From positions 6,874-70,873 of the forward strand of contig CAYYFE010000016.1 of NCBI GenBank assembly GCA_964471115.1: a stretch of DNA of 64,000 nt, in the 5' to 3' direction. Below the pieces are notes generated by a model. It ran no database searches and was not told the origin of the DNA. It worked only from the letters and a program-made list of their open reading frames with translations. The position numbers and the translations under genes are program-made. The DNA is from an uncultured Solibacteraceae bacterium. Lineage in GTDB: Bacteria > Acidobacteriota > Vicinamibacteria > Vicinamibacterales > SCN-69-37. The stretch's first letter is position 1; the number at the start of each line of letters is the position of its first letter. Below are positions 68 through 54,587 of this stretch, piece after piece.

Positions 68-1804
68 ATGCGGGATCTACGAGCCTCGATCGGACGTCGT
101 GTGTGTGTGGCCGTGCTGGCGATCGTCGCCGGGCTGGCCGCGCCGGTTCACACGCAGCAGCAGCTGCGCACGCAGGCGGAGGAGTCCAACTGGACGGCCT
201 ACACCCGCCACGAGAACATGCTGGCCTACATGCGCGCGCTGCAGGCCACCACGCGCGACATGCGGACGACGTCGTACGGCCGGTCACATGAAGGCCGCGA
301 CCTGCCGCTGGCGATCTTCGCGCGGCCGATGGTCACGCAGCCGTGGGAAGCCATGGCCTCGGGCAAACCCATCATCATGTTCCAGACCAACGTGCACGGC
401 GGCGAACGCACGCAGCGCGAGTCGATCCTGCAGCTCATGCGCGAACTGGTCACGCCGGGCACCGAGCCGAACAAGGCGCTGGATCACGTCATCCTGCTCA
501 TCGCGCCGCAGATCAATCCGGATGGCTTTGAAGCCAGTCAGAACGGCCAGCGCGGCAACGCGTGGGGCATCGACCTCAATCGCGACTACATCAAGCTGGA
601 ACAGCCCGAAATCGCCAATGTGGTCACCAACGTGTACCACCAGTGGTATCCGCACCTGATCATCGACGGCCACAACGGCGGCGCGCGGCCCTACAACATC
701 AACTACGTCACGACCGCGAATGCCTCGGTCGATCAGGCGCTGGTCACCATCGCCAACAACGAGATCTTCCAGCACGTGCGCACGCGCAACGAGGAAGCCG
801 GGCTGAAGGCCTTCTTCTACCCGGGCGGCAACGCCGAGTTCTGGCAGGGGGTGCCGGCGTATCCCCGCATCGGCATGACCTACGCGACGTTCCTCAACAG
901 CTTCGGCATCACGTTCGAGTCACCGGCGCAGCCGATGGAAACGGGCGTGCGGTCGGGCCTCATCAGCTACAAGGCCGTGCTCGAGTGGGTGGTGGCCAAC
1001 CGGCGGAAGGTGCTCGACACGGTGACGGCCGCGCGTCAGAAAACCGTCGAGATGGGGCTGACCGCCGACGGCGAAGTCATGGTGGCGATGGAGCAGGTGG
1101 ACCACGACTTCACGGTGAGCTACGAGATTCCCGATCCGCAGAACCAGGGCCAGTTCATCACCATTCCCAACGGCAAGCTGCGCACCAAGCCGAACGTGCT
1201 GGCCGCGCGCCCGCGCCCGTACGCCTACATCCTGCCGAGGGAGGCGGTGCAGGCCGTGGCGCTGCTGCGCCAGCACAACATCACCGTGGAGGTGCTGCGC
1301 GAACCGAAGGCGCTGACCGTGCAGGCCTATGAACTGGGCGACGTCTTCTATCGCACCGAATACGACCATCAGGGCGCGACCACCGTCACCGTCAAGGCCG
1401 TGCACACGGTGGAGCGCACGTTCCCGGCCGGCACCTACGTCGTGTCGACGGCGCAGATGCTGGGACGCCTGGTGGCGCATCTGCTTGAACCGGAGAGTGA
1501 CGACAACGTCGTGCTCTGGAATCGCATGGACGCGTGGCTGCCGACGTCGCGCATCCGTCCCGCGCCGGCGAATCTGATTCCCGAAGCGTGGCCCGGCCGC
1601 GGCCAGGGCGCGGGCCCCGCCGGTGCCGCAGCCGCAGGCGCGGGCGCGGCTCAGGGCCGCGGGGCCGGCCGTGGCGCCGGTGCCGGCGATCCCGAAGCCC
1701 AGCCGCCCGCTCGCGGCGGCCGCGGTGGCGCACCTCAGCCGCCGCTGATTCCGATCTTCAAGCTGATGAACCGCACGCCGCTGCCGGCGGTGTTGGTGAA
1801 ATGA
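68..1804 (+). CDS. Secreted M14-family zinc carboxypeptidase-like protein with Gly/Arg-rich C-terminal insert
   Basis: Signal-peptide-like N-terminus; zinc motif NVHGGE (HxxE), NPDG, DLNRD and IDGH; GGAGG RBS at 56-60. Confidence 0.85.
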   Translation: MRDLRASIGRRVCVAVLAIVAGLAAPVHTQQQLRTQAEESNWTAYTRHENMLAYMRALQATTRDMRTTSYGRSHEGRDLPLAIFARPMVTQPWEAMASGKPIIMFQTNVHGGERTQRESILQLMRELVTPGTEPNKALDHVILLIAPQINPDGFEASQNGQRGNAWGIDLNRDYIKLEQPEIANVVTNVYHQWYPHLIIDGHNGGARPYNINYVTTANASVDQALVTIANNEIFQHVRTRNEEAGLKAFFYPGGNAEFWQGVPAYPRIGMTYATFLNSFGITFESPAQPMETGVRSGLISYKAVLEWVVANRRKVLDTVTAARQKTVEMGLTADGEVMVAMEQVDHDFTVSYEIPDPQNQGQFITIPNGKLRTKPNVLAARPRPYAYILPREAVQAVALLRQHNITVEVLREPKALTVQAYELGDVFYRTEYDHQGATTVTVKAVHTVERTFPAGTYVVSTAQMLGRLVAHLLEPESDDNVVLWNRMDAWLPTSRIRPAPANLIPEAWPGRGQGAGPAGAAAAGAGAAQGRGAGRGAGAGDPEAQPPARGGRGGAPQPPLIPIFKLMNRTPLPAVLVK

Positions 1805-1849
1805 TGAAGTGATGAAGTGCTGACGTGCTGGGGTGCTGAGGTGCTCAGG
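1802..1849 (+). repeat. Degenerate 8-bp tandem array, 6 units (TGATGAAG x2, TGCTGACG, TGCTGGGG, TGCTGAGG, TGCTCAGG)
   Basis: Read directly; starts at the M14 stop codon and contains the stop of the four-helix-bundle gene. Confidence 0.85.
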
Positions 1850-2243
1850 TGCGCTTGTGGCGGAGGCGCTCCTTTGGAGTTGGCGTGTTCTGAAGGTATC
1901 GACGCAGCCGATTGGTGACATCGATGGTCTCGGCGATCTGCGCCGTGAGACTACCGTGTTCCTCCGAGCTGATGTAGCCCTTCGCGGACGCTTCTTCACA
2001 GAGATCGAGTAGTTCGTTGAGCGAACCCAGACTGATCACGGTGAATCGCGCGAAGTCGGGATGCCGATACCGTCCGAAGCCCTCCGCCAGATTGCGGCAG
2101 GCGGAACTGCTGGCTGAATCGAACTGGTCACGAAACTTCAGATCGCCCGCGATCGCCCTGCGCTGACACAAGCTGATGACGGCCTTCCGCACGGCGGAAG
2201 CCGACTGCCACGCCCTAAGGTCCTTGAAGCTTGAGACTCCCAT
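1845..2243 (-). CDS. Four helix bundle protein (TIGR02436 / 23S rRNA IVP-like; structural relatives include DGR Avd)
   Basis: MGVSSFKDLRAWQ...FRDQFDSASSSACRNLAEGFGR...FARFTVISLGSLNEL matches the family pattern (F.DL..WQ, DQ..RA..S...NIAEG.GR, A.GSL.E); start set at the Met at 2243. Confidence 0.88.
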   Translation of the reverse strand: MGVSSFKDLRAWQSASAVRKAVISLCQRRAIAGDLKFRDQFDSASSSACRNLAEGFGRYRHPDFARFTVISLGSLNELLDLCEEASAKGYISSEEHGSLTAQIAETIDVTNRLRRYLQNTPTPKERLRHKRT

Positions 2244-2255
2244 GCCGACGGACGT

Positions 2256-2271
2256 TGCAGGCGCTATGCCA
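2256..2271 (-). promoter_or_regulatory. Putative sigma54 (-24/-12) promoter of the four-helix-bundle gene
   Basis: Minus strand TGGCATAGCGCCTGCA = GG-N10-GC, close to consensus TGGCAC-N5-TTGC. Confidence 0.45.
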
Positions 2272-2332
2272 GCGCCAAGCCACGTCTGACGCCGCCAGTA
2301 CGCGATTTCTGCCACCCTGTCTGCTATTGGCG

Positions 2333-2406
2333 CCCCCCCGCCCCCCCGCCCCCCAGCACCCCAGCACCCCAGCACCCCAGCACCCCAGCACCCCAGCACC
2401 CCAGCA
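2333..2406 (-). repeat. (CCCCAGCA)7 array at 2351-2406, preceded by (C7G)2; reverse complement of the 1802-1849 array
   Basis: Seven perfect 8-mers read directly; the minus strand reads (TGCTGGGG)7. Confidence 0.95.
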
Positions 2407-4287
2407 TCACCTGATCCGTATGTCCTGCCTCGTCTCGGTGCCCGTCGCGATCGTGACCCGGATGGCCGTGTCGTAGATCGTCGCCAGGAACTCGGGCCGT
2501 CGATGGTCATCGTTGTCGATGTCGTCGACGGCGGCCAGACGGTAGTCGCCGGGCGGAAGGCCGGTGAAGGTGAACCGGCCGTCGGCCGCGGGCCGCAGGA
2601 CGCGCTGGCGCGGCGACCCTGCGTGCCACAGCGCGCGGTCGTCGGGAAAAACGACCAGGAAATAGTCGGAGACCGGCGCGCCCGATTCGGTGGAGAAGTG
2701 GCCGCTCAGTGAGGCCTGTGCGCGCGAGAGCACGATCTCGACACCGCTGATGGACCCGGTCGTGAACGTCAGCGGCCGATCGCGCAGGTCGCGCCCGTCG
2801 TGCATGACGCCTGACAGATGCCAGCCCGCCAGCGCGGGGGGCAGGGTCGCGATGACCTCGAACTCGCCGGACGTCAGGCCGTCCACCCGAAACGTGGCGT
2901 CCGCTTCCACCGCCACACTGCGCGTCGCGCCGGCCAGAACGGCCGTGCGCACCTGATGCCCGGGTGGCGTGATCGGCCGCACCTGCACACGAGCGCGCGT
3001 CCACGCGTCCGGTTCGAGCGTCGCGCCGGCGGCCACCAGGCGGCCGCTGAAGGTCTCGCCCTCGCGCAGTTGCAGGGTGACGCCCTCAATGTCGTGCCCC
3101 CCGACGATGAACTCGGTGGTGGCCCATTGGGTGTTGCGGATGGAGTTGATCGAATATCCGCCGCCTGGAGCGGTCGTCACGCCACCGGCTCGCGCGGTCA
3201 CCCGGTACGACCCCGGTGGGACATTGCGAATCCTGAACCGGCCGGCGGCATCCGGCATGTCCGTGCGCAGGGCCATCGAGGCGGCGATCGGGACGGGTGG
3301 CCCCAGGGCCTCGATCGACAACTGCGCGGCCGGTGTCGGCTGGCCATCAACACCCAGGACCACGCCGCTGATGGTGGATGAGGCGACCGCCGTGATGGTG
3401 AAGTCCACGCCCAGCCGTTCTTCACTCAGGCCCAGCGACACCGGCACGGCCAGTGCGGGCACGGCGGTACCGGGGAAGTACGTCGGCGCAAACGCTGCGA
3501 GCGGCCGGGACGCCGGCGACGCGCTGCCGGCGGGCGCGGTCCCCGTCACCGAGCGCGTGAGGGTGGCGGCGACGGCGTCGTACTCGCCCGCGCTGGCCGG
3601 GTCGAAATCACCGCGACCAATGGCCGGGTACGCGGCCACCAGGTAGCGATCGGGCGGCAGACCGTAGATCCGGTATCGCCCCTCATCGTCGGTTCGAATC
3701 GGCACGCTCGCGTCGATGATGGTGCCGCCGGCCTCGGCCATGCCCATCGGGACGACGCGCACTTCCGTGTCGGTCAGCGGTTGGCCGTTGGGCAATGTCA
3801 GCTGTCCCGCGATGACGCCGCCCCTGGGCAAGGTGATGGCCAGGTTCGTGACGCGCTGGCCTTCCGCAAGCACCAGTGTCGTGCCCTGCCGTCCGGGCCG
3901 CTTCGCCCCCCACGCGGTCGTCAGGTGCGCGGGTTTGGTCGCCGTCACCGTGTACCGTCCCGCGCCAACACCGGCGATGGCGAACTCGCCGTTGTCGCCG
4001 GTGACGACACTGCGGTTGGCGCCGGTGCCGACGTCGGTCAACGTGATGATGGCGCGACGCACCGCAGCGGGGGAGTCACCCGGTGTGGTCACTCGTCCGG
4101 CCACCACGGACGTGCCACGGGTGATTTGGGCAGGGATCGCGTCGCGTGCCGCCGATGTCGACACCGGAGGCGGTGGCGGAGGCGGGGGTGGAGGCGGGGG
4201 CGGCGGCACCTGCGCGAGTGCGGTGCCGGCCACGCCGCCACACAGCAGGGCCACCTGGAAAATCAGCAGCCACGCGCGACGGGTCAT
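2407..4287 (-). CDS. Secreted carboxypeptidase-regulatory-like domain (beta-sandwich repeat) protein
   Basis: Signal peptide, 14 consecutive Pro, repeated I.G.V...G.P / TD..G.YRIYGLPP.RY / APTYFPG / G.FTFTGLPPGDY motifs. Confidence 0.8.
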   Translation of the reverse strand: MTRRAWLLIFQVALLCGGVAGTALAQVPPPPPPPPPPPPPPVSTSAARDAIPAQITRGTSVVAGRVTTPGDSPAAVRRAIITLTDVGTGANRSVVTGDNGEFAIAGVGAGRYTVTATKPAHLTTAWGAKRPGRQGTTLVLAEGQRVTNLAITLPRGGVIAGQLTLPNGQPLTDTEVRVVPMGMAEAGGTIIDASVPIRTDDEGRYRIYGLPPDRYLVAAYPAIGRGDFDPASAGEYDAVAATLTRSVTGTAPAGSASPASRPLAAFAPTYFPGTAVPALAVPVSLGLSEERLGVDFTITAVASSTISGVVLGVDGQPTPAAQLSIEALGPPVPIAASMALRTDMPDAAGRFRIRNVPPGSYRVTARAGGVTTAPGGGYSINSIRNTQWATTEFIVGGHDIEGVTLQLREGETFSGRLVAAGATLEPDAWTRARVQVRPITPPGHQVRTAVLAGATRSVAVEADATFRVDGLTSGEFEVIATLPPALAGWHLSGVMHDGRDLRDRPLTFTTGSISGVEIVLSRAQASLSGHFSTESGAPVSDYFLVVFPDDRALWHAGSPRQRVLRPAADGRFTFTGLPPGDYRLAAVDDIDNDDHRRPEFLATIYDTAIRVTIATGTETRQDIRIR

Positions 4288-6185
4288 CGCTGGTCTCCAG
4301 TCAGCCGCACGGTCACCGTGACCGTCGCGCCGGCGGTGAGGCGCGCGGCGGTCGCCTGGCGGGCCGCCGCCTCGATGAAGCGGTCATCCCCCAACCGGAT
4401 CCGGTCTGCGGCCGGCACGGCGATGGCCAGATACTCGCCGGGCGGCAAACCCGTCATCCGCCACTGGCCGCGCGTGTCCGCCCCGGTGGTGCGGAACCGC
4501 AGTGAGGCCGCCGCCGCATACGGCCACAGCGCTCGCGCTTCGGGAAACACCAGCACGACCGCGTCTTCCGCCGGCGTTCCGTCCGCGTGCACCACCGTGC
4601 CGGTCAGCGTGGTCGTCGCACGGGTCAGGGTGATGGTCACGCCGGTCACCGGCGTGCCGGGTTCCACCTCGAGTGGGGCGTTGAGCAGGTCGCGGCCGTT
4701 CCATTCGGCTCGGGCGATGCCGAACTGGGTGCCAATCAGGCCCGCCAGCATGTAGCGGCCGGGCAGCACGTTGGTCACCGTGAACGGGAGGGTCTCGGCG
4801 GTGACTGCCTTCGGTCGCTCGAGCGCGCTGATGCGCGGTCCGCCGAACGGCGAGAGGTCCACCGGTTCAAGCCGCACGGCGGGGACCAGCGGGCCCTCGC
4901 CGGCGACCGGCCCCGGGGTGTCGAGCTGCAACGTCCCAGAGACGGTCGTGGCCGGCTGAATCGGGACCATCAGATCTGCGATGGGCTCGCGGCCCACACT
5001 GACGGGCAGCGTGCCGACGCCATCGGGACCGGACATCGTGTGGGTGGAGAGCATGACGCCGTTGCCGGCACTCTGGTTGATGAACCCGCTGTTGACGTTC
5101 GCGGGCAGCCACCGTCGCACCGAGGAGGCCAGCTGCGCCGCAAGATACGACGCCGTGCGGCCGGCAATGAGCAGATAGTCGCCTTCCGGGACGGCGTCGA
5201 ATGTGAACACACCTTCGGCGTTTGTCTGCGTGAGCGCCGCATCAGTGCCTGCGACCAGTGCGGTGTCGCCCGAGGGCACGAGGCGTACGGTCATGCGCGT
5301 GACCGTGTCGGCAGGACCCACGAGCCGCCCGGTCACCCGCACCGTCGACACCAGGAGCAGTTGGACATCAATGCCTGCCCGTCGTTCCCCGGCCTTCAGC
5401 GTGAGCACGGTGCCGTCCTCGATCCGGCGCGCCGAGGGGTAAAACGCCCCGGCGAATGCCCGGCCGCTGCTGCCGTCGCCGATGGCGCCGAAGAGGGTGG
5501 ATCCCACGCCGTCCTCGCCGCGAATGACGGGAGGCGTCGGCGCCGGCACCAGCGCGCTGCTGGTGGTGCCGCCCACCGAGGTGGTCCGCGCGGGCGTGCC
5601 CACCGCCGCGGCATCGGCCGGGACGGTCAGGGCGATGTGCGGCGCGTGCACGAGGTAGTCGCCGGGGGGCAGTTCTCCGAAGCGCCAGGCCCCGCGGTCG
5701 TCCGTCTGCGTCGACGCGACGTACGCCCAGCGCGCGGCGCGGCCCACGATGGCCCGTCTGAGCAGTTGCACCGGGCCTTCGACGATCGCTTCGCCGCGGT
5801 CGTCGATGAGTGACCCGGACAGCGACGCCGTGCGCCACATCCGCACGTTGATGTCGGTGCGCCACTCGCCGTCCTTCAGCGACACGCGGCCCGGCAGCGG
5901 GTCACCGGGCCGTCGGCCGTATCCGCCGTCGAGATACCCGGCCGATGCGGTTGACACGATGTACGCATCGCCGGCCGGCAGTCCGGTGAAGATGAACCGG
6001 CCGGAGGCATCCGTCACCTTGCGCGGCAAGCCCTGGACCTGCACGAAGACCCCGGACAGCGCCGCCCCGGTCTCGCCGTCGGTCACCACGCCGCTGATGG
6101 CGCCGGTGGCCGGCGGTGACGGCTGGGGCGCTTGTGCCGAGACGCCCACGGCCGCCGCCAGCACACACACTGCAATGAGTCGCAT
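4284..6185 (-). CDS. Secreted carboxypeptidase-regulatory-like domain protein (paralog of the downstream gene)
   Basis: Start MRLIAVCVLAAAVGVSAQ at 6185; ISGVVTD, TDASGRFIFTGLPAG, TDDRGAWRFGELPPGDY motifs; ATGA overlap with the next gene. Confidence 0.8.
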   Translation of the reverse strand: MRLIAVCVLAAAVGVSAQAPQPSPPATGAISGVVTDGETGAALSGVFVQVQGLPRKVTDASGRFIFTGLPAGDAYIVSTASAGYLDGGYGRRPGDPLPGRVSLKDGEWRTDINVRMWRTASLSGSLIDDRGEAIVEGPVQLLRRAIVGRAARWAYVASTQTDDRGAWRFGELPPGDYLVHAPHIALTVPADAAAVGTPARTTSVGGTTSSALVPAPTPPVIRGEDGVGSTLFGAIGDGSSGRAFAGAFYPSARRIEDGTVLTLKAGERRAGIDVQLLLVSTVRVTGRLVGPADTVTRMTVRLVPSGDTALVAGTDAALTQTNAEGVFTFDAVPEGDYLLIAGRTASYLAAQLASSVRRWLPANVNSGFINQSAGNGVMLSTHTMSGPDGVGTLPVSVGREPIADLMVPIQPATTVSGTLQLDTPGPVAGEGPLVPAVRLEPVDLSPFGGPRISALERPKAVTAETLPFTVTNVLPGRYMLAGLIGTQFGIARAEWNGRDLLNAPLEVEPGTPVTGVTITLTRATTTLTGTVVHADGTPAEDAVVLVFPEARALWPYAAAASLRFRTTGADTRGQWRMTGLPPGEYLAIAVPAADRIRLGDDRFIEAAARQATAARLTAGATVTVTVRLTGDQR

Positions 6186-13121: not shown

Positions 13122-13233
13122 CCCGCGAGCCCACCAGCCCACGAACCCACGAACCCACGAGCCCACGAGCCCACGAGCCCACGAACCCACAAGCCCACGA
13201 GCCCACGAACCCACAAGCCCACGAGCCCACGAT
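13122..13233. repeat. 8-bp tandem array, consensus CCCACGAR, 14 units
   Basis: Fills the gap between the K+ channel stop and the AbgT promoter. Confidence 0.95.
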
Positions 13234-14988: not shown

Positions 14989-15044
14989 ATCGATGGATCA
15001 ATGGATCAATGGATCGATGGATCGATGGATCGATGGATCGATGG
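14989..15044. repeat. 8-bp tandem array ATCRATGG, 7 units
   Basis: Read directly; ends 8 nt before the DUF2200 ATG. Confidence 0.95.
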
Positions 15045-17864: not shown

Positions 17865-18500
17865 TTACGAGACATCCGGGGGTGTGGTTCGGTTCCGCGC
17901 GTGGAGCAGGCCCACCGCCAGCACCCCCGACCACAGCAGGAACGCGTAGAGGAAGACGCGTTCGACCACGCCGACCCCCGGTGTGGGCCGCTGCCAGATC
18001 ATGAGCGGGACGTACACAAACGTGCCGAGGCCGAACAGGAACGCGACGGGAGTCACCAGTCGCGAGAATCGACGGAACCGGTTCCCCAGCGCGTTCGTGC
18101 CGGCGAACATGGTCGCGGTCAGCAACAGCACCATCAGCGCGCCCATCGCGATGTGACCGGCGTCAGTCACCGCGAAGGCGTCGCCGCGTTGATGCATCGG
18201 CACGAACGACCACAGCGGCCCCGAGAGGACAAACGCGACCATCAGCCAGCCGAGCACCCGCACCTGCGGGCGCGTGCGGCCTTCAAGGACGATGGCGGTG
18301 GTGAAGGCGGTGAAGAGGAAGGCGTAGACCTGCAGAAACGCGCCCCACAACGCCGCGGTCGGCGCGCCAACGGCCGACAGTTCGCTGATGACCTGATGCG
18401 CGAAGCTGTAGTTGGGATAGCGGAGTCCGCAGACGACATCCGCGGCGATGTAGACGACCGGCGACAACGCGCCCAAGACGAGCAGCAGGGTTCGAACCAC
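17865..18500 (-). CDS. DUF998 family membrane protein
   Basis: YSFAHQVISELSAVGAP, several TM segments, GVVER; GTG start at 18500 preferred, alternative ATG at 18551. Confidence 0.7.
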   Translation of the reverse strand: MVRTLLLVLGALSPVVYIAADVVCGLRYPNYSFAHQVISELSAVGAPTAALWGAFLQVYAFLFTAFTTAIVLEGRTRPQVRVLGWLMVAFVLSGPLWSFVPMHQRGDAFAVTDAGHIAMGALMVLLLTATMFAGTNALGNRFRRFSRLVTPVAFLFGLGTFVYVPLMIWQRPTPGVGVVERVFLYAFLLWSGVLAVGLLHARNRTTPPDVS

Positions 18501-18550: not shown

Positions 18551-18640
18551 TGGTGCCGGGGGTGGGAATCGAACCCACACGTCCCTGTGGGGGACTCGGG
18601 ATTTTAAGTCCCGTGCGTCTGCCAGTTTCGCCACCCCGGC
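18551..18640 (-). tRNA. trnL: tRNA-Leu (anticodon TAA), 90 nt, CCA encoded
   Basis: GCCGGGG acceptor stem, anticodon arm CGGGA-CTTAAAA-TCCCG, long variable arm, T-loop TTCGATT, ACCA end. Confidence 0.97.
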
Positions 18641-18683: not shown

Positions 18684-18761
18684 GGATTGAGGATTGAGGA
18701 TTGAGGATTTGTCCGCACTTCGCACTTCGCACTCCGCACTCCGCACCGATCGATCCTCAAT
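18684..18761 (+). repeat. Composite 7-bp array (GGATTGA)3-4 + (CGCACTY)4-5 + inverted ATCCTCAAT
   Basis: Read directly; near-copy in reverse orientation at 31615-31712. Confidence 0.9.
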
Positions 18762-20154: not shown

Positions 20155-20160
20155 AGGTCA

Positions 20161-20216
20161 CAGGGCGCAGGGCGCAGGGCACAGGGCACAGGGATCAGGG
20201 AACAGGGATCAGGGTG
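20161..20216. repeat. 7-bp tandem array CAGGGNN, 8 units
   Basis: Between convergent genes; overlaps the MgtC stop codon. Confidence 0.9.
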
Positions 20217-27076: not shown

Positions 27077-27753
27077 TGATTGAACTTGTCGAGGTGTCCC
27101 GCACCGTCACCGGCGGTGCCGGGCCGCTCACCATCCTGCATCCCACGTCGCTGACGATCGCCGCGGGCCGCATTGTCGCGATCACCGGGCCGTCGGGCAG
27201 CGGCAAGTCGACGCTGCTCGGGCTGCTGGCCGGCCTCGACACCCCGACCACCGGCCGCGTGGTCATCGACGGCGTCAACATCACCGCGCTGGGCGAAGAG
27301 GCGCTGGCCGCGTTGCGCGGCGAGAAGATCGGCATCGTCTTTCAGTTCTTCCACCTGATTCCCTCGCTGACTGCGCGCGAGAACGTGATGGTGCCGATGG
27401 AACTGGCCGGCGTGGCGGATGCGCGCGCGCGCGCCGAGGCGCTGCTCGCGGAAGTCGGGCTCTCCGAACGCGGCCACCACTATCCGTCGCAACTGTCGGG
27501 CGGCGAACAGCAACGCGTGGCCATCGCCCGCGCGCTGGCCAACGATCCGCCGATCCTGCTGGCCGACGAACCCACCGGCAATCTGGACTCCGCCACCGGC
27601 CACCATGTCATCGACCTGCTGCTCTCGGTGAACCGCCGGCAGGGCCGCACGCTGGTGCTCGTGACACACGATCCCGAACTGGCCGCGCGCGCCGATGAGG
27701 TCATCGCCCTGCGCGATGGGAGGGTGCAAGTGGCGGCAAGTGGCGGCGAGTAG
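27076..27753 (+). CDS. ybbA: ABC transporter ATP-binding protein (YbbA-like)
   Basis: GPSGSGKS, LSGGEQQRV, LADEPTGNLD. Confidence 0.9.
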   Translation: MIELVEVSRTVTGGAGPLTILHPTSLTIAAGRIVAITGPSGSGKSTLLGLLAGLDTPTTGRVVIDGVNITALGEEALAALRGEKIGIVFQFFHLIPSLTARENVMVPMELAGVADARARAEALLAEVGLSERGHHYPSQLSGGEQQRVAIARALANDPPILLADEPTGNLDSATGHHVIDLLLSVNRRQGRTLVLVTHDPELAARADEVIALRDGRVQVAASGGE

Positions 27754-27780
27754 CGGCGAGTGGCGGCGAGTAGCGGCATG
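27731..27780 (+). repeat. 10-bp array TRGCGGCRAG, 5 units
   Basis: Contains the ybbA TAG (27751) and the ybbP ATG (27778). Confidence 0.9.
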
Positions 27781-31621: not shown

Positions 31622-31712
31622 GGAGTGCGGAGTGCCGAGTGCGGAGTGCGAAGTGCGAAGTGCGGGGATTGAGGAGTGGGGAAGTCCTCAATCCCCAATC
31701 CTCAATCCTCAA
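31615..31712 (-). repeat. Composite array GGATTGA/(RAGTGCG)6/GGATTGA/(TCCYCAA)4
   Basis: Reverse complement closely resembles 18684-18761. Confidence 0.9.
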
Positions 31713-31718
31713 TAACAA

Positions 31719-34289: not shown

Positions 34290-34305
34290 GAATTCAACTC
34301 CTCAA

Positions 34306-34372
34306 CTCGCCGCTACTGGCCGACACTCGCCGCCACTTGCCGCCACTTGCCGCCACTCGCCGCTACTCGCTA
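34306..34372 (-). repeat. 10-bp array of the TGGCGGCGAG family, 6 units plus a partial unit, minus strand
   Basis: Begins at the adaptor gene's TAG. Confidence 0.88.
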
Positions 34373-44048: not shown

Positions 44049-44160
44049 GGTCCAACGGGTCCAACGGGTCCAACAGGTCCAACAGGTCCAACAGGTCCAA
44101 CAGGTCCAACAGGTCCAACGGGTCCGGACCTGATGGACCTGTAGGACCCGTTGGACCCTG
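44049..44160. repeat. 9-bp array (GGTCCAACR)8 followed by 4 inverted units; symmetry centre GGTCC|GGACC at 44125/44126
   Basis: Read directly. Confidence 0.95.
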
Positions 44161-44164
44161 GCTC

Positions 44165-44737
44165 TTATCGGTTCGACGCCAGGATCAGGTCGGAGACCCG
44201 CGGGGTCATGTCTTCGAGCGGCTGCAGCGCGCTGAGCGACGGCCGGTCGTAGGCGCCTTCGAGAATGGCCACGTCTTCGGCGGTCATCTGCGGAGGTGCC
44301 GGGGCCGCCGCGGAGATCGCCGGAGGATCGGGCTGGCGGAGCATGTGGCTCAGTTCGATGCCGATGATGCCAATCATGATGCCCGCCGCCGCGGCGGCCG
44401 CGGCCACCCAGCCGGCGCTCATCTGACGACGGCCCGATTCACGCGCCGACGCCGTCGCCGCAGGGAAGCTGATGACCTTGGACGGGCGATCGAGCTGCGC
44501 CAGCCGATCCAGGACCTGGCTGCGCTGGGCGCGCATCCGGTCGTCGGCACACACCGCGTCGGCCTCGGCCCGGCCGGTGGCCTGCACGTCTTCGAGCCAG
44601 CGGCTCATTTCGATGGCCCGGCTGGCGCAGAGCGCGCATTCATCCAGATGGGCCGGATGCAGGCCCGAGGTCCAGACCTCGACCAGTGCATCTTCCGACA
44701 AATGCCCGCGCCGCAACACGACGTCAGCGAGCCGCAT
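44165..44737 (-). CDS. Putative zinc-binding anti-sigma factor
   Basis: HLDECALC (HxxxCxxC), single TM segment, downstream of and overlapping an ECF sigma gene. Confidence 0.75.
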   Translation of the reverse strand: MRLADVVLRRGHLSEDALVEVWTSGLHPAHLDECALCASRAIEMSRWLEDVQATGRAEADAVCADDRMRAQRSQVLDRLAQLDRPSKVISFPAATASARESGRRQMSAGWVAAAAAAAGIMIGIIGIELSHMLRQPDPPAISAAAPAPPQMTAEDVAILEGAYDRPSLSALQPLEDMTPRVSDLILASNR

Positions 44738-45413
44738 GATGGGACCTGCCTTTCTCTTCCGTAGATACTGCGCCACCCTCACGGGGTGTTTCACTGCCCG
44801 GAGCCAGCAGGCTCCGCAGGCGGCGAATCGCGCGGAACAAATGCACGCGGACCGTCGATTCGTTCAGGCCCGTGACGGCACTGACCTCACGCGACGTCCG
44901 CCCTTCAAAGTGACTGAGCACGAACACGAGCCGCTGGCGCTCGGGCAACTCATCCAGGGCCTTGCGGAGCCGGCGACGGCGTTCCTCCTGCAGCAACTGC
45001 GCCTCAGGGCTGGGGCCCCGCGACGGCAGGTGCTCGGCCGGATCCCGTTCGACGCCGTCGGCATCCACCGTCGGCCGGGCAATCCAGCGTTCGCGGCGGC
45101 GCCGGGCCTTGATCCGGTCCAGGCAGCCATTGATCAAAATGCGCGTAAACCAGACCTCGAACGGCAGCTCCTCACGGAACGTGCCCAGGTGGGTGTACGC
45201 CTTCACAAACGCGTCCTGCACCGCCTCGTCGGCGTCGGCGGCATCCCTCAGATAGTGAAACGCGATGCGTGTGGCCCGGCGCTGGTGGCGCTCCACCAGC
45301 TCGCCATACCGCTCGCGCGCGGCATCCACACGTCCGGCCGCCTGATGGGCCTTGACGTCGATGGCGGCACGCGTGTCGAGTTCCCGGGTCGTTTCTGCGG
45401 AAATGGCAGCCAC
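44724..45413 (-). CDS. ECF RNA polymerase sigma-70 factor
   Basis: ADEAVQDAFVKAY, FEVWFTRILIN, LPERQRLVFVL, STVRVHLFRA. Confidence 0.93.
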   Translation of the reverse strand: MAAISAETTRELDTRAAIDVKAHQAAGRVDAARERYGELVERHQRRATRIAFHYLRDAADADEAVQDAFVKAYTHLGTFREELPFEVWFTRILINGCLDRIKARRRRERWIARPTVDADGVERDPAEHLPSRGPSPEAQLLQEERRRRLRKALDELPERQRLVFVLSHFEGRTSREVSAVTGLNESTVRVHLFRAIRRLRSLLAPGSETPREGGAVSTEEKGRSHHAAR

Positions 45414-45452
45414 TCCTGAAGTGAGGATACGGCGAAAGGGTACTATCGTTTA

Positions 45453-45515
45453 CAGGGCACAGGGCGCAGGGCACAGGGCACAGGGCACAGGGCACAGGGC
45501 ACAGGGCACAGGGCG
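45453..45515. repeat. 7-bp array (CAGGGCR)9
   Basis: Begins 1 nt after the SpoIID stop. Confidence 0.95.
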
Positions 45516-51970: not shown

Positions 51971-52000
51971 TTGACACGTTCGTCACACCTGCCTTACTTT
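51971..52000 (+). promoter_or_regulatory. Putative sigma70 promoter TTGACA-N18-TACTTT
   Basis: Perfect -35 box immediately after the gatB stop. Confidence 0.5.
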
Positions 52001-52020
52001 TGAGGTGTTCCTTTTCTCGA

Positions 52021-52335
52021 ATGGCTGCCAAGAGTCGTCTGGTAAGCGTCGAAGCCCCGCGGGTCCACTGGCCTCTGGCTGGGGCCTCCTGTCAGTGCCT
52101 TGCGGCGTTTTTCCGTGAAGAGTTCGTCAAGCACCACCAGTGCCTCGAAGCGCAGCGCGAGTACTTCTCCGAACTGGCCATCGCGCAGGCCGAAGACGCC
52201 CTGCAGCGCATCCTCAGTCAACTCGATCAGCTCTGCCAGCGCGACGATGCGTGTGAGCTGGTGGCGCAGTTGCTGCGGCAGATCGATGCGGTGACCAATC
52301 TGTCGGCGTGGACCGAGCCGGAACATCTGCACTAG
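52021..52335 (+). CDS. Small Cys/His-containing hypothetical protein
   Basis: 104-aa ORF with GC3-biased codons and its own promoter-like sequence. Confidence 0.7.
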   Translation: MAAKSRLVSVEAPRVHWPLAGASCQCLAAFFREEFVKHHQCLEAQREYFSELAIAQAEDALQRILSQLDQLCQRDDACELVAQLLRQIDAVTNLSAWTEPEHLH

Positions 52336-52438
52336 GCACGGCAAGTTCTCTTGTCAGCACAGTAGACATGTCGGCATGTAGGCTCCGGCGTTGGGCCTAC
52401 GCCCTGCGTGTGGGCTGCTGCTTTGCGTGCAAGGGCTT

Positions 52439-52504
52439 CACAGGAGGCACGGAGGCACGGAGAGTTCCTGGCTTGAAACCCTCCGCGTCTCCGCGCCTCC
52501 TGTG
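52439..52504. repeat. Inverted pair of 8-bp repeats (GGAGGCAC-type), 24-bp arms, 18-nt loop
   Basis: CACAGGAGGCACGGAGGCACGGAG / CTCCGCGTCTCCGCGCCTCCTGTG; abuts the stop at 52505. Confidence 0.85.
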
Positions 52505-53103: not shown

Positions 53104-53673
53104 CTACCTTCGATTCGGGTCGCCGCTGATCGGCGACATCGTCATCGGCGTCACAGTTAATGGAGTGATCGACAGCAGGTCCGGTTGGATCGAATCGAAC
53201 GTCACCGGCTCAATCGCGATCTGTTCCACCGCCAACGCACCAATGGCGGCCAACGCCGGCACGCGCCGCGCTTCCCAGGCCAGTAGTTCGGGGCTGACGA
53301 CCGGCTGTGCGGCGGTTCCGCGGTTCCTGGGTTCCTGGGTTCTGGGGTTCCGTGCCTGGGTTCGTGGGTTCGTGGGTTCGTGAGTTCCGAGGTTCGCCGC
53401 CACAATCGCACTGCCTGCACCCTGTGCACCTTGTGCACCCTGTGGACCCTGTGCACCCTGTGGACCTTGTGGACCCTGTGGACCCTGTGGACCCTGCAGC
53501 CCTTGGATGAGCACGATGACCGTCAGTCCCGCCGCCACGAGTCCGCCCGCCCAGCGCCAGTCGCCGACGCGGCGGCGTCCGGGCGGCGTGGCGGCGTCCA
53601 GCCGCGCGCGAATGCGCGACTCGAGATCCGCCGACGGTTCGACCTCGGTGATCGCCCGCGCCGCGCTCAGCAT
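53104..53673 (-). CDS. Putative single-TM anti-sigma factor with repeat-derived collagen-like segment
   Basis: Follows an ECF sigma; [15 protein letters not shown] helix, (G-X-Q)9-10; start could extend to 53745 within the repeats. Confidence 0.65.
53314..53396 (-). repeat. Degenerate 8-bp array (GGTTCSTG on +, i.e. CCCACGAA family on -), about 10 units, in CDS
   Basis: Same family as 13122-13233. Confidence 0.8.
53413..53502 (-). repeat. 9-bp array GGT-SCA-CAR encoding Gly-Pro/Ala-Gln triplets
   Basis: Ten triplets: [30 protein letters not shown]. Confidence 0.92.
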
Positions 53674-53761
53674 CTCGTCATCTCGCCATGTCGTCATGTC
53701 GCCACCTCGCCACCTCGCCACCTCGCCATCTCGCCATCTCGTCATCTCGTCATCTCGTCAT
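53671..53761 (-). repeat. 8-bp array (CAYCTCGY on +; RTGRCGAG on -), about 12 units
   Basis: Spans from the sigma stop codon to the anti-sigma ATG. Confidence 0.92.
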
Positions 53762-54366
53762 GTGCGGGTGCGCAGCACACGTCGTGCTTCGGCGACGCGC
53801 CACTTCACGGTGCCGGACGGCACGCTCAGCATCACGGCAATTTCGTCGTACGTGTATTCGCCCGACGCGGCCAGGAGCAGCGTGTCGCGCAGTTTGGGCG
53901 TGAGGCCGGCAATCGCGGCGCGCAGGGCCGCGGCCTCGGCGCGGGCGGCGGCCACGCGCTCCGGGTCGGCGGCGTCCGACGCCATCCGGTCCAGTCCATC
54001 GCCCGCGGCCTCGTCAGCCGGGGTGACACGGCGCCGCCACCAGCGGTCGCGAGACTTGCGCCGGTCGAGCGCCTGCCGCCAGGTGATGGTCAGCAGCCAC
54101 GTCTTGAACGTCGAGTCCCCGCGAAAATCCCCGACCTTCCGCCAGGCCAGCACGAACGCGTCCTGCGCCACCTCTTCGGCGTCCTCGGGCCGCTGCAGCG
54201 CCGCCATGGCGGTGCGGAAGACCGTGCGGAAGTACAGGGACACCAGCGCGTCGAACGCCGCGCGGTCGCCGGCTTGCGCGGCCCGTACCCAGGCGCGCAC
54301 CTGCGGCGTTTCTCCCTCCAGGGGCCGGACAACGGGCGACTCGTCAGCGTCGGGCGTGACGGTCAT
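53758..54366 (-). CDS. ECF RNA polymerase sigma-70 factor
   Basis: [43 protein letters not shown]; start may be 54366 or 54396. Confidence 0.92.
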
Positions 54367-54441
54367 GGCCGGAATGGTCGCAACACGCGGCAGCACCGTC
54401 CCAGTAGACCGCCGGGCGGGCCGGATGGTTGGGTCGGCCGG

Positions 54442-54587
54442 AAGGGCACAGGCAACAGGGCGCAGGGCACAGGGAACAGGGAACAGGGAGACCTTTGGCC
54501 AAATGTGGCCTGTGGCCTGTGGCCTGTGGCCTGTGGCTTGCGGCCTTCGGCCTGTGGCCTGTGGCCTGTAGCCTGTAACCTGTAAGC
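54442..54587. repeat. Inverted pair of 7-bp arrays: (CAGGGNR)7 at 54442-54490 and (TGTGGCC)12 at 54504-54587
   Basis: Read directly; the spacer contains the palindrome TTTGGCCAAA. Confidence 0.92.

Follow-up and report, generated by a model that had tools for sequence, protein, structure and literature searches.

A gene for a four-helix-bundle protein of the '23S rRNA intervening sequence protein' family, at positions 1845-2243 of a 64-kb stretch of DNA from an uncultured bacterium of the Vicinamibacterales (hereafter the window, meaning the whole 64,000 nucleotides analysed), lies between two arrays of short tandem repeats that are inverted complements of each other. Comparison with related genes in other genomes revealed that ribosomal intervening sequences (IVS) and the four-helix-bundle genes located elsewhere have one architecture, in which the arms flanking the open reading frame (ORF) are made of heptamer or octamer arrays. 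We lean, by a modest degree, towards reading the segment 1802-2409 as an IVS-type stem-loop cassette outside rRNA, which would be looped out and processed at the RNA level.

The cassette and its protein

The cassette and its two neighbouring genes are arranged in the window as follows.

68..1804, plus strand: M14 zinc carboxypeptidase gene (PF00246, E 7e-18), with orthologues at 79-86% identity in Vicinamibacterales metagenomes
1802..1852, no strand: left octamer array, degenerate; the 3' arm with respect to the four-helix-bundle gene, C/A-rich on the strand of that gene
1845..2243, minus strand: four-helix-bundle protein gene, 132 aa, start MGVSSFKDL
2244..2334, minus strand: leader of 91 nt from the 5' arm to the start codon, with the motif GCAGAAATCGC at 2312-2302, which recurs in the leaders of relatives (alignment and motif scan)
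2335..2406, no strand: right octamer array, near-perfect; the 5' arm with respect to the gene, reading (TGCTGGGG)7 then (GGGGGGGC)2 on the minus strand
2407..4287, minus strand: CarboxypepD_reg-domain gene (PF13620, E 1.6e-33), co-directional with and upstream of the four-helix-bundle gene

The TGA stop codon of the M14 gene (1802-1804) forms the first triplet of the left array, which also holds the stop codon of the four-helix-bundle gene itself, and the right array begins directly after the TGA (2409-2407) of the CarboxypepD_reg gene, which is convergent to the M14 gene. Tandem Repeats Finder placed the left array at 1805-1852 (period 8, 6 copies, 85% matches), with the units TGATGAAG twice, TGCTGACG, TGCTGGGG, TGCTGAGG and TGCTCAGG in that order, and the right array at 2335-2406 (period 8, 9.0 copies, 96% matches), with GCCCCCCC twice followed by CCCCAGCA seven times. 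The arms are inverted complements over 52 nt at 79% (1801-1852 against 2356-2407), and their inner 27 nt are 89% complementary. Both ends of the cassette read TGATG inward from a stop codon and are mirror images of each other, with no direct target-site duplication. The 132-aa ORF is the sole gene between the two flanking stop codons. The GC content inside the 1802-2409 unit is 0.585-0.63 as against 0.64-0.80 in the flanking 200-nt windows and 0.69 in the 64-kb window, and the GC content at third codon positions (GC3) is 0.73 in the four-helix-bundle gene as against 0.88 and 0.85 in its neighbours.

The arm duplex of the window, with 45 Watson-Crick and 7 G.U pairs on the sense strand, was predicted at -99 kcal/mol there and, with 0 G.U pairs, at -76 kcal/mol on the antisense strand. 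In the predicted minimum-free-energy fold of the sense transcript (-309.9 kcal/mol, z = -7.2) the arms form a terminal stem of about 50 bp with the ORF in the loop. The original prediction, made from the letters of the DNA, had described this segment by its coordinates, inverted arrays, TGATG ends, single cargo gene and lowered GC content, all of which are borne out by the sequence analysis; its statement that no transposase is present agrees with the four-helix-bundle ORF being the only gene between the stop codons, and the pairing of the two arrays around a looped ORF that it proposed to look for in the folded transcript is what the predicted fold contains. Its suggestion that stop codons are targeted is not established, as the arrays merely fill the short spacers beside the flanking genes.

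A scan of 1600-2600 for consensus promoters and terminators returned none, including no sigma-70 consensus promoter, and the only repeats detected in 1700-2500, apart from the octamer arrays, were short matches no longer than 17 nt. The Rfam scan of the 64-kb window identified no rRNA and only a tRNA gene, phmmer found no second four-helix-bundle gene in it, and the unit GTGCTGGG has no other occurrence in it outside the cassette.

The encoded protein scored 70.5 bits against PF05635 (cut-off 33.8) and 63.3 bits against TIGR02436 (cut-off 24); it is a member of this family, and each defining feature that we examined was found in it. A profile of the protein and its relatives matched PDB 2gsc (XCC0516) with an E value of 7.6e-17. 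The AlphaFold2 monomer model (pLDDT 89.2) consists of four long helices, and Foldseek aligned it to 2gsc with TM-scores of 0.78/0.88, to 2rld (BT_0352) with 0.72/0.84 and to 4dwl, the accessory protein Avd of diversity-generating retroelements, with 0.68/0.82, the sequence identity to Avd being about 10%. The conserved family motif is GxxRxxxSxxxNxxE (S..RN.AEG) (PMC3936711); the window protein carries SACRNLAEGF at residues 47-56, where A53, E54 and G55 are invariant and S47, R50 and N51 are at least 90% conserved. A homopentameric ring is a further hallmark of the family. The nearest relatives are only 40-60% identical and are placed in Vicinamibacterales, Acidobacteriota, by their genome records. 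The dN/dS values among relatives range from 0.04 to 0.3, and judging from these sequences the protein is under purifying selection.

Recurrence in Vicinamibacterales and in other phyla

The related-lineage sample comprised 22 distinct Vicinamibacterales/Acidobacteria loci. All loci in this study were found by similarity to two queries, the window protein and XCC0516, and do not form a random sample of the family; strict peptide-pattern scans of genome and metagenome collections returned 7 and 11 loci. An array was scored as a chain of at least three GTGC (or GCAC) cores spaced 6-11 nt apart. By this test, a GTGC-core array lies upstream of the gene in 14 of the 17 loci with enough sequence and a GCAC-core array downstream in 17 of 21, as against 0.85% of 1882 control windows of 400 nt that passed the GTGC-core test; the related control loci contain about one array per 11.7 kb. 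The typical order in gene orientation is a GTGC-core array of 7-9-mers, often beginning immediately behind the stop codon of an upstream gene on the same strand, then a leader of 90-170 nt, the ORF and a complementary GCAC-core array that extends to the next gene. The flanking genes are unrelated from locus to locus. For instance, L001 is flanked on one side by UvrA, an RRM-domain protein and a hypothetical gene, and on the other by an ABM-domain gene and an S9 peptidase; in L003, glucokinase and a TPR-repeat gene lie upstream and a convergent gene lies downstream, and L011-L017 and L026-L037 give further contexts.

The repeat unit differs by locus, being GTGCTGGG in the window and GTGCTCAC, GTGCTCTC, GTGCTCGG, GGGTGCCCA or GTGCGAA elsewhere. 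Nevertheless, within a locus one arm corresponds to the other: the share of 7-mers common to the upstream arm and the reverse-complemented downstream arm is 0.48 within loci and 0.12 between them (permutation p<5e-5), and the duplexes predicted for the arms lie between -58 and -208 kcal/mol. At one locus recovered from eight metagenomes (L003-L010), the protein is identical and the complete upstream arrays have 6.6 to 17.6 copies, so that array length changes faster than the coding sequence. The cassette arrays thus behave as microsatellites: copy number varies by sample, the unit drifts by locus and the arms stay complementary.

The leaders share a quasi-palindromic motif, GCAG-AAA/TTT-nTGC, which was detected in L001, L003, L012, L016, L021, L026, L027, L029 and L037 and at 2302-2312 (minus strand) of the window, and is present even in L021, which has no arrays. 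It is often doubled, with the second copy, TACGCAGAAAcTGCC, about 70-80 nt before the start codon. Its candidate roles are those of a promoter, operator or RNA hairpin.

Beyond Acidobacteriota, loci were obtained by tblastn of a plasmid collection with the window protein and XCC0516, and by look-ups of XCC0516 relatives for the Xanthomonas and Dyella chromosomes. Inverted arrays of 7-8-mers bracket the gene in 18 of these 20 distinct loci, which belong to Cyanobacteriota, Xanthomonadales, Gemmatimonadota, Bacteroidota and Azospirillum. The arm units include the following.

Nostoc: 5' AGTAGGG, 3' CCCTACT
Nostoc and Geminocystis: 5' GGGAAAA, 3' CCCTTTT
Calothrix and N. punctiforme: 5' GGGTGTA, 3' CTACACC
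Anabaena: 5' ACAGGTG, 3' CTGTCAC
Aulosira, Trichormus and Nostoc: 5' TCAGAAG, 3' CTTCTGA
Gemmatirosa: 5' GGCAGGAG, 3' CTCCTGCC
Riemerella: 5' GGTTTAA, 3' AAACCTT
Xanthomonas and Dyella: 5' GGGAATC, 3' CCCATTC

Orthologous four-helix-bundle genes retain the repeat unit across genera. The background of such arrays was 5 in 50 kb of a Nostoc plasmid, one of them beside the resident four-helix-bundle gene. The insertion sites include accB|accC, nrdB|nrdA, cas6|cas4 (twice), cmr2|cmr3, sufA|sufB and hlyD|ABC-transporter, and the occurrence of four-helix-bundle genes inside CRISPR-cas loci has been reported (PMC3936711). The gene for XCC0516, the protein of known crystal structure, sits between accB and accC with arrays flanking it. 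In the Xanthomonas and Dyella arms (L042 1430-1462/1843-1872; L046 1490-1518/1901-1930) the paired blocks are of 6 bp, nearly every heptamer being mismatched at its position 7. In these genera the ORF appears from the sequence to begin at a GTG within the upstream array, the public Xanthomonas gene call starting further downstream; with such a start in Xanthomonas, the operon transcript would include the arrays. In the cyanobacterial 5' arms, GGAG immediately precedes the start codon. Apart from the gene-bearing loci, plasmid alpha of Nostoc PCC 7120 has a convergent pair without cargo, (GCAGGGGAG)3 / (CTCCCCCTG)4, inside an annotated CyRepA1 replication gene (L064, 30546-30625).

A canonical IVS was among these loci. 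In Azospirillum (L049) the PF05635 ORF lies within a 23S rRNA gene, identified by the Rfam LSU model at 1087 bits, and its arms read CAGAGGA CGGATGA CAGAGGA CGGAGGA upstream and TCCGTCC TCTGTCT TCTGTCA TCCGTCT downstream of the ORF. The S23p/PF05635 ORF in the Leptospira IVS goes back to Ralph & McClelland 1993, as cited in PMC3936711 and PMC4990558. In the Coxiella IVS, RNase III cuts inside the stem formed by the inverted repeats, and the S23p ORF has variable tandem heptamers upstream of it (PMC4990558). The idea put forward earlier of an IVS-like architecture outside rRNA therefore has a direct counterpart, the Azospirillum IVS being built alike from inverted heptamer arrays around a PF05635 ORF, and the check then proposed on other four-helix-bundle genes came out in its favour, with flanking inverted arrays strongly enriched both in the related lineage and outside Acidobacteriota.

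The arms also have a fixed polarity. In the cross-phylum loci the 5' arm has more G than C in 17 of 17 and the 3' arm more C than G in 16 of 17, and in Vicinamibacterales the 5' arm is G/T-rich and the 3' arm C/A-rich. As an inverted repeat reads alike on both strands, this rule is a property of the arm pair and not of gene orientation. It agrees with the 'convergent' orientation reported for Xanthomonas arrays, where GGGAATC forms 186 dispersed arrays, 70 of them convergent pairs, at a mean of 28 nt after the upstream ORF (PMC4692102). That study of Xanthomonas and Nostoc arrays does not mention S23, four-helix or intervening sequence and draws no link to PF05635 genes, and in the open-access literature we found no paper that connects flanking inverted tandem repeats with PF05635 genes located elsewhere than in rRNA.

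We also compared the M14 junction among related genomes. In L026 (M14 83% identical) the closest homologue of the window gene (58%) lies downstream of M14 with arrays on both sides, on the opposite strand with respect to M14; this cassette (5001-5414) has an in-frame TAG at 5118, and the gene may be a pseudogene by its reading frame. The next ORF in L026 (5612-5944, 110 aa, without a Pfam match) is bracketed by reverse-polarity arrays, as if it lay between two cassettes. In L023-L025 (M14 83%) a short array starts at the stop codon, the contigs ending 74 nt past it. L018-L020 (M14 86%, the closest orthologue) and L022 (66%) have no four-helix-bundle gene, but their downstream genes differ, and no clean empty site at the junction was obtained. 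The presence of the cassette downstream of M14 in at least two further related genomes marks it as evolutionarily stable, and the comparison of these junctions indicates that it is long-lived there, can be inverted and can be lost or replaced. The proposal that it is mobile is not established. No identical copies at other sites and no target-site duplication were found: phmmer detected no near-identical copy elsewhere in the window, the closest relative found is 60% identical, and the protein P0005, on 8 contigs, and P0013, on 2, are each always in one context. The distance between accB and accC is 10 nt in E. coli and about 450 nt in Xanthomonadales with the cassette between them. Judged on such spacing the cassette is clearly a historical insertion; recent transposition was not seen.

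Other short tandem arrays

About 20 further arrays of period 7-10 lie between genes in the window, many directly beside a stop codon, so that arrays alone are not special; the matched inverted pair around the four-helix-bundle gene is. Such arrays are a genome-wide trait resembling the short tandemly repeated repetitive (STRR) sequences of cyanobacteria and the GGGAATC arrays of Xanthomonas. Examples are listed below.

13122-13232, 14989-15044, 20155-20207, 27726-27778, 34305-34370, 45452-45514, 53314-53496, 53671-53761 and 54443-54576: intergenic tandem arrays

One array, (CCCACGAG)14, takes up all the space from one minus-strand gene to the next. The compound array (GGATTGA)3.7(TCCGCAC)5 at 18684-18746 is the exact reverse-complement arrangement of (GGAGTGC)6.3...(TCCTCAA)4.1 at 31622-31713, 12.9 kb away with about ten genes between; the two could belong to a dispersed family of compound arrays or be the ends of a large invertible or rearranged segment. 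The 18684 array adjoins the tRNA gene at 18554-18640 (minus strand), the sole Rfam match in the window, next to a DUF998 membrane-protein gene (17865-18500). At 44049-44157, (GGTCCAACA)8.6 runs straight into its reverse complement (GGACCTGTT)3.6, making an array hairpin without cargo, in which the A/C-rich arm comes first, the opposite of the polarity of the gene-bearing cassettes. Arrays of the heptamer AGGGCAC (GTGCCCT on the other strand) occur at three sites (45452-45514, 54443-54489 and 20155-20207), two of them just upstream of paralogous operons for extracytoplasmic function (ECF) sigma and anti-sigma factors (44165-45413; 53104-54396). A gap of lower GC3 at 51994-52344 has ORFs of 111 and 116 aa on opposite strands without a Pfam match, and beside it, at 52443-52500, lies a small G-first pair, (GGAGGCAC)2.5 ... 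(CCTCCGCG)2.6.

Gene-less arrays of the GAGCAC type were likewise observed in relatives: L023 has (CCGAGCA)19 at 2690-2838, inside the called 3' part of a NYN/OST-HTH gene, and L026 has (GCACCCGA)7.5 at 1430-1489, just upstream of the start of a NYN/OST-HTH gene. Gene calls that run into arrays acquire repetitive peptide tails (KHQSTKHQST, GPQGPQGPQ), as in P0004, P0018 and 53104-53745 of the window. A role of the repeats as a polar motif of the Chi type or of the FtsK-orienting (KOPS) type was rejected, GTGCT/AGCAC and related words being neither skewed nor over-represented outside the arrays of the window.

Known systems, proposed mechanism and alternatives

The window cassette shares with the 23S rRNA IVS a PF05635 protein in the loop and an ORF enclosed by inverted repeats that form a long stem; the Azospirillum arms are inverted tandem heptamers, Coxiella has variable heptamers upstream, and the G/purine-rich arm is 5' of the ORF. 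It differs in lying between the stop codons of protein genes and not in a 23S rRNA helix (25 or 45), and in having an octamer unit and a 91-nt leader with a conserved motif, and RNase III excision is known for the rRNA cases only. Not being inserted in rRNA, the element is therefore not an rRNA IVS, though it is built like one. Short tandem repeat arrays have been described as GGGAATC in Xanthomonas and as GGGGA(C/T)T and STRR heptamers in Nostoc/Anabaena (PMC4692102), and as TAACTGA in Beggiatoaceae (PMC4679880). The arrays of the cassette resemble the STRR and GGGAATC types in their period of 7-9 nt, variable length and mostly intergenic position near the end of an upstream ORF, with convergent pairs often seen in Xanthomonas, and the arrays flanking the Xanthomonas four-helix-bundle gene are exactly of the GGGAATC type; unlike them, the window pair encloses a gene and its unit is specific to the subfamily of that gene.

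PF05635 has been regarded as Avd-like (PMC10053308), and the fold of the window protein does resemble that of Avd (PDB 4dwl, 8ub7), at the TM-scores given above. However, the gene has the M14 and CarboxypepD_reg genes as neighbours, with no adjacent reverse transcriptase or template/variable repeats. Nor does the cassette have the transposase, the direct target-site duplication or the second copy within the window that would be expected of an insertion sequence or a miniature transposable element with inverted repeats (MITE), and its arrays, of period 8 without spacers, differ from the repeats of about 24-48 nt with unique spacers of a CRISPR array. It is thus not a diversity-generating retroelement, an insertion sequence/MITE or a CRISPR array. 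Foldback transposons and MITEs with terminal inverted repeats made of tandem repeats, such as Drosophila FB/Galileo, are eukaryotic, use a transposase of their own or one supplied in trans and make target-site duplications; FB/Galileo elements share with the cassette the long inverted termini of short tandem units, the variable copy number and the central unique segment, but the cassette has neither a transposase nor a target-site duplication.

According to the RNA-level reading that we favour, a transcript crossing the cassette, either a sense read-through from the CarboxypepD_reg gene or an antisense one from the M14 gene, would pair the arms into a duplex of about 50 bp with the ORF in the loop. 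By analogy with the rRNA IVS, RNase III would cut this stem and so remove the insert from host transcripts. Once looped out, the insert could be tolerated in rRNA, within operons and behind stop codons, and the arm duplex might also process or gate the mRNA of the cassette itself. The repeat arms, in RNA or DNA form, are the most likely ligand of the four-helix-bundle protein, by analogy with its structural relative Avd, a pentameric nucleic-acid-binding barrel. The cassette would have arrived by insertion, and recombination between the arms could invert it.

Several observations weigh against processing at the RNA level. The sense duplex is favoured at 8 cross-phylum loci and the antisense duplex at 7, and the balance is mixed in Vicinamibacterales; as the two are equally stable overall, the complementarity could equally be a property of the DNA. 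The conserved leader of 90-170 nt in the Vicinamibacterales cassettes may hold the promoter of the gene, in which case the 5' arm would be outside the four-helix-bundle mRNA. Arrays and inverted pairs without cargo far outnumber the genes, both in the window and in Xanthomonas (186; PMC4692102), so the gene is not needed in cis. The arms are direct and not inverted in L016 and L032, and mostly direct on both sides, with a local hairpin upstream, in L040. L021 (M14 81%, CarboxypepD_reg 51%) has at the same junction a far more divergent family member without arrays. Lastly, cleavage by RNase III is established for rRNA intervening sequences only (Coxiella, PMC4990558).

A rather unlikely alternative is a mobile element acting at the DNA level, with the arrays as foldback-like terminal inverted repeats, the PF05635 protein as the sole encoded factor and ORF-less arrays, pairs and IVS as non-autonomous products. 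It would account for the presence of the gene at unrelated sites, including conserved operons and rRNA, for a GC3 below that of the neighbours and for the recurrence in L026 of one and the same unit 3.3 kb away without a gene; the unit flanking the Xanthomonas gene is likewise that of the 186 dispersed arrays, 70 of them convergent pairs (PMC4692102), orthologous genes keep their unit across genera, and repeats added to the two 3' ends of a break would give the fixed polarity. Yet the protein is a 132-aa helical bundle with no catalytic domain, there is no target-site duplication, identical copies at different loci are lacking (P0005 and P0013 have one context each over their 8 and 2 contigs), GTGCTGGG is nowhere else in the window, and the cassette lies downstream of M14 in relatives too (M14 81-83%; closest orthologue, in L026, 58%). 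More doubtful still is the view that PF05635 proteins are the trans-acting part of a cross-phylum repeat system, kept or spread by binding to the repeats, in which gene-bearing cassettes would be autonomous and gene-less arrays and pairs non-autonomous. The latter, numbering in the hundreds, would comprise the GGGAATC arrays of Xanthomonas and the STRR of cyanobacteria, together with the octamers of Vicinamibacterales and rRNA IVS that have no ORF, and the fixed arm polarity would record how the repeats are laid down. The model, which is also the closest analogy to the DNA-level mobile element, is the repetitive extragenic palindromic (REP) sequence, with its paired form (REPIN) and its REP-associated tyrosine transposase (RAYT), where one gene likewise has on either side, in inverted orientation, a short repeat found scattered over intergenic regions close to the ends of genes, copies without the gene being far commoner. 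REP sequences are single palindromes and RAYT is a Y1 transposase with known catalytic residues; the window arms are tandem arrays, the trans-acting relation is hypothetical here, and no catalytic activity is known for PF05635.

The arrays might instead act on the gene or its neighbours as regulatory elements, either operator-like or of the G-quadruplex type, with the inverted symmetry incidental to stem formation. The (TGCTGGGG)7 array fits the G-quadruplex consensus, G-rich heptamers of Xanthomonas and Nostoc have been studied as quadruplex formers (PMC4692102), the GGAG before the start in cyanobacterial 5' arms could supply or mask a ribosome-binding site, and the Vicinamibacterales leaders conserve a quasi-palindromic motif. 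We consider this improbable, as arm complementarity is the one cross-phylum feature and is not required of a one-sided binding site; most units (GTGCTCTC, GTGCTCAC, TTAGCTG, TCAGAAG, AACCTTG) have no G-tracts, and the G-quadruplex as a general function was rejected as fitting the (TGCTGGGG)7 array of the window and not most other units. That the inverted arrays let the cassette flip as a switch is very improbable: the opposite strand of the closest homologue (58%), with its arrays, downstream of the orthologous M14 gene in L026 speaks for it, but no recombinase is present, flipping between symmetric arms changes nothing obvious for the gene, and the flip was seen only between genomes with M14 83% identical, all 8 contigs of the L003 locus being in one orientation. 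It is scarcely credible that two arrays of an array-rich genome came by chance to surround an ordinary small gene, even with some 20 other intergenic arrays of period 7-10 in the window, several abutting stop codons. Matched inverted arms surround family genes at no fewer than 30 independent loci in five phyla, against a background of 0.85% of control windows, one array per 11.7 kb in related control loci and 5 per 50 kb in the Nostoc plasmid; coincidence is ruled out by the control-window rate, the arm matching within loci, the recurrence across phyla and the Nostoc background.

The IVS-type cassette joins three separately described things, namely the rRNA IVS with its conserved ORF, the four-helix-bundle genes and the genome-wide heptamer/octamer arrays of Xanthomonas and cyanobacteria, to which those of Acidobacteriota are added here. 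For annotation and assembly it carries a warning, as the arrays break metagenome contigs and are translated into the ends of gene calls. The PF05635 family gains a testable cis element, for which tractable models are offered by X. campestris XCC0516, of solved structure, and by Nostoc PCC 7120. The cassette architecture would account for a gene-sized insert sitting harmlessly in rRNA and in operons, and is relevant to where bacterial short tandem repeats come from and to the ancestry of Avd, the accessory protein of retroelements.

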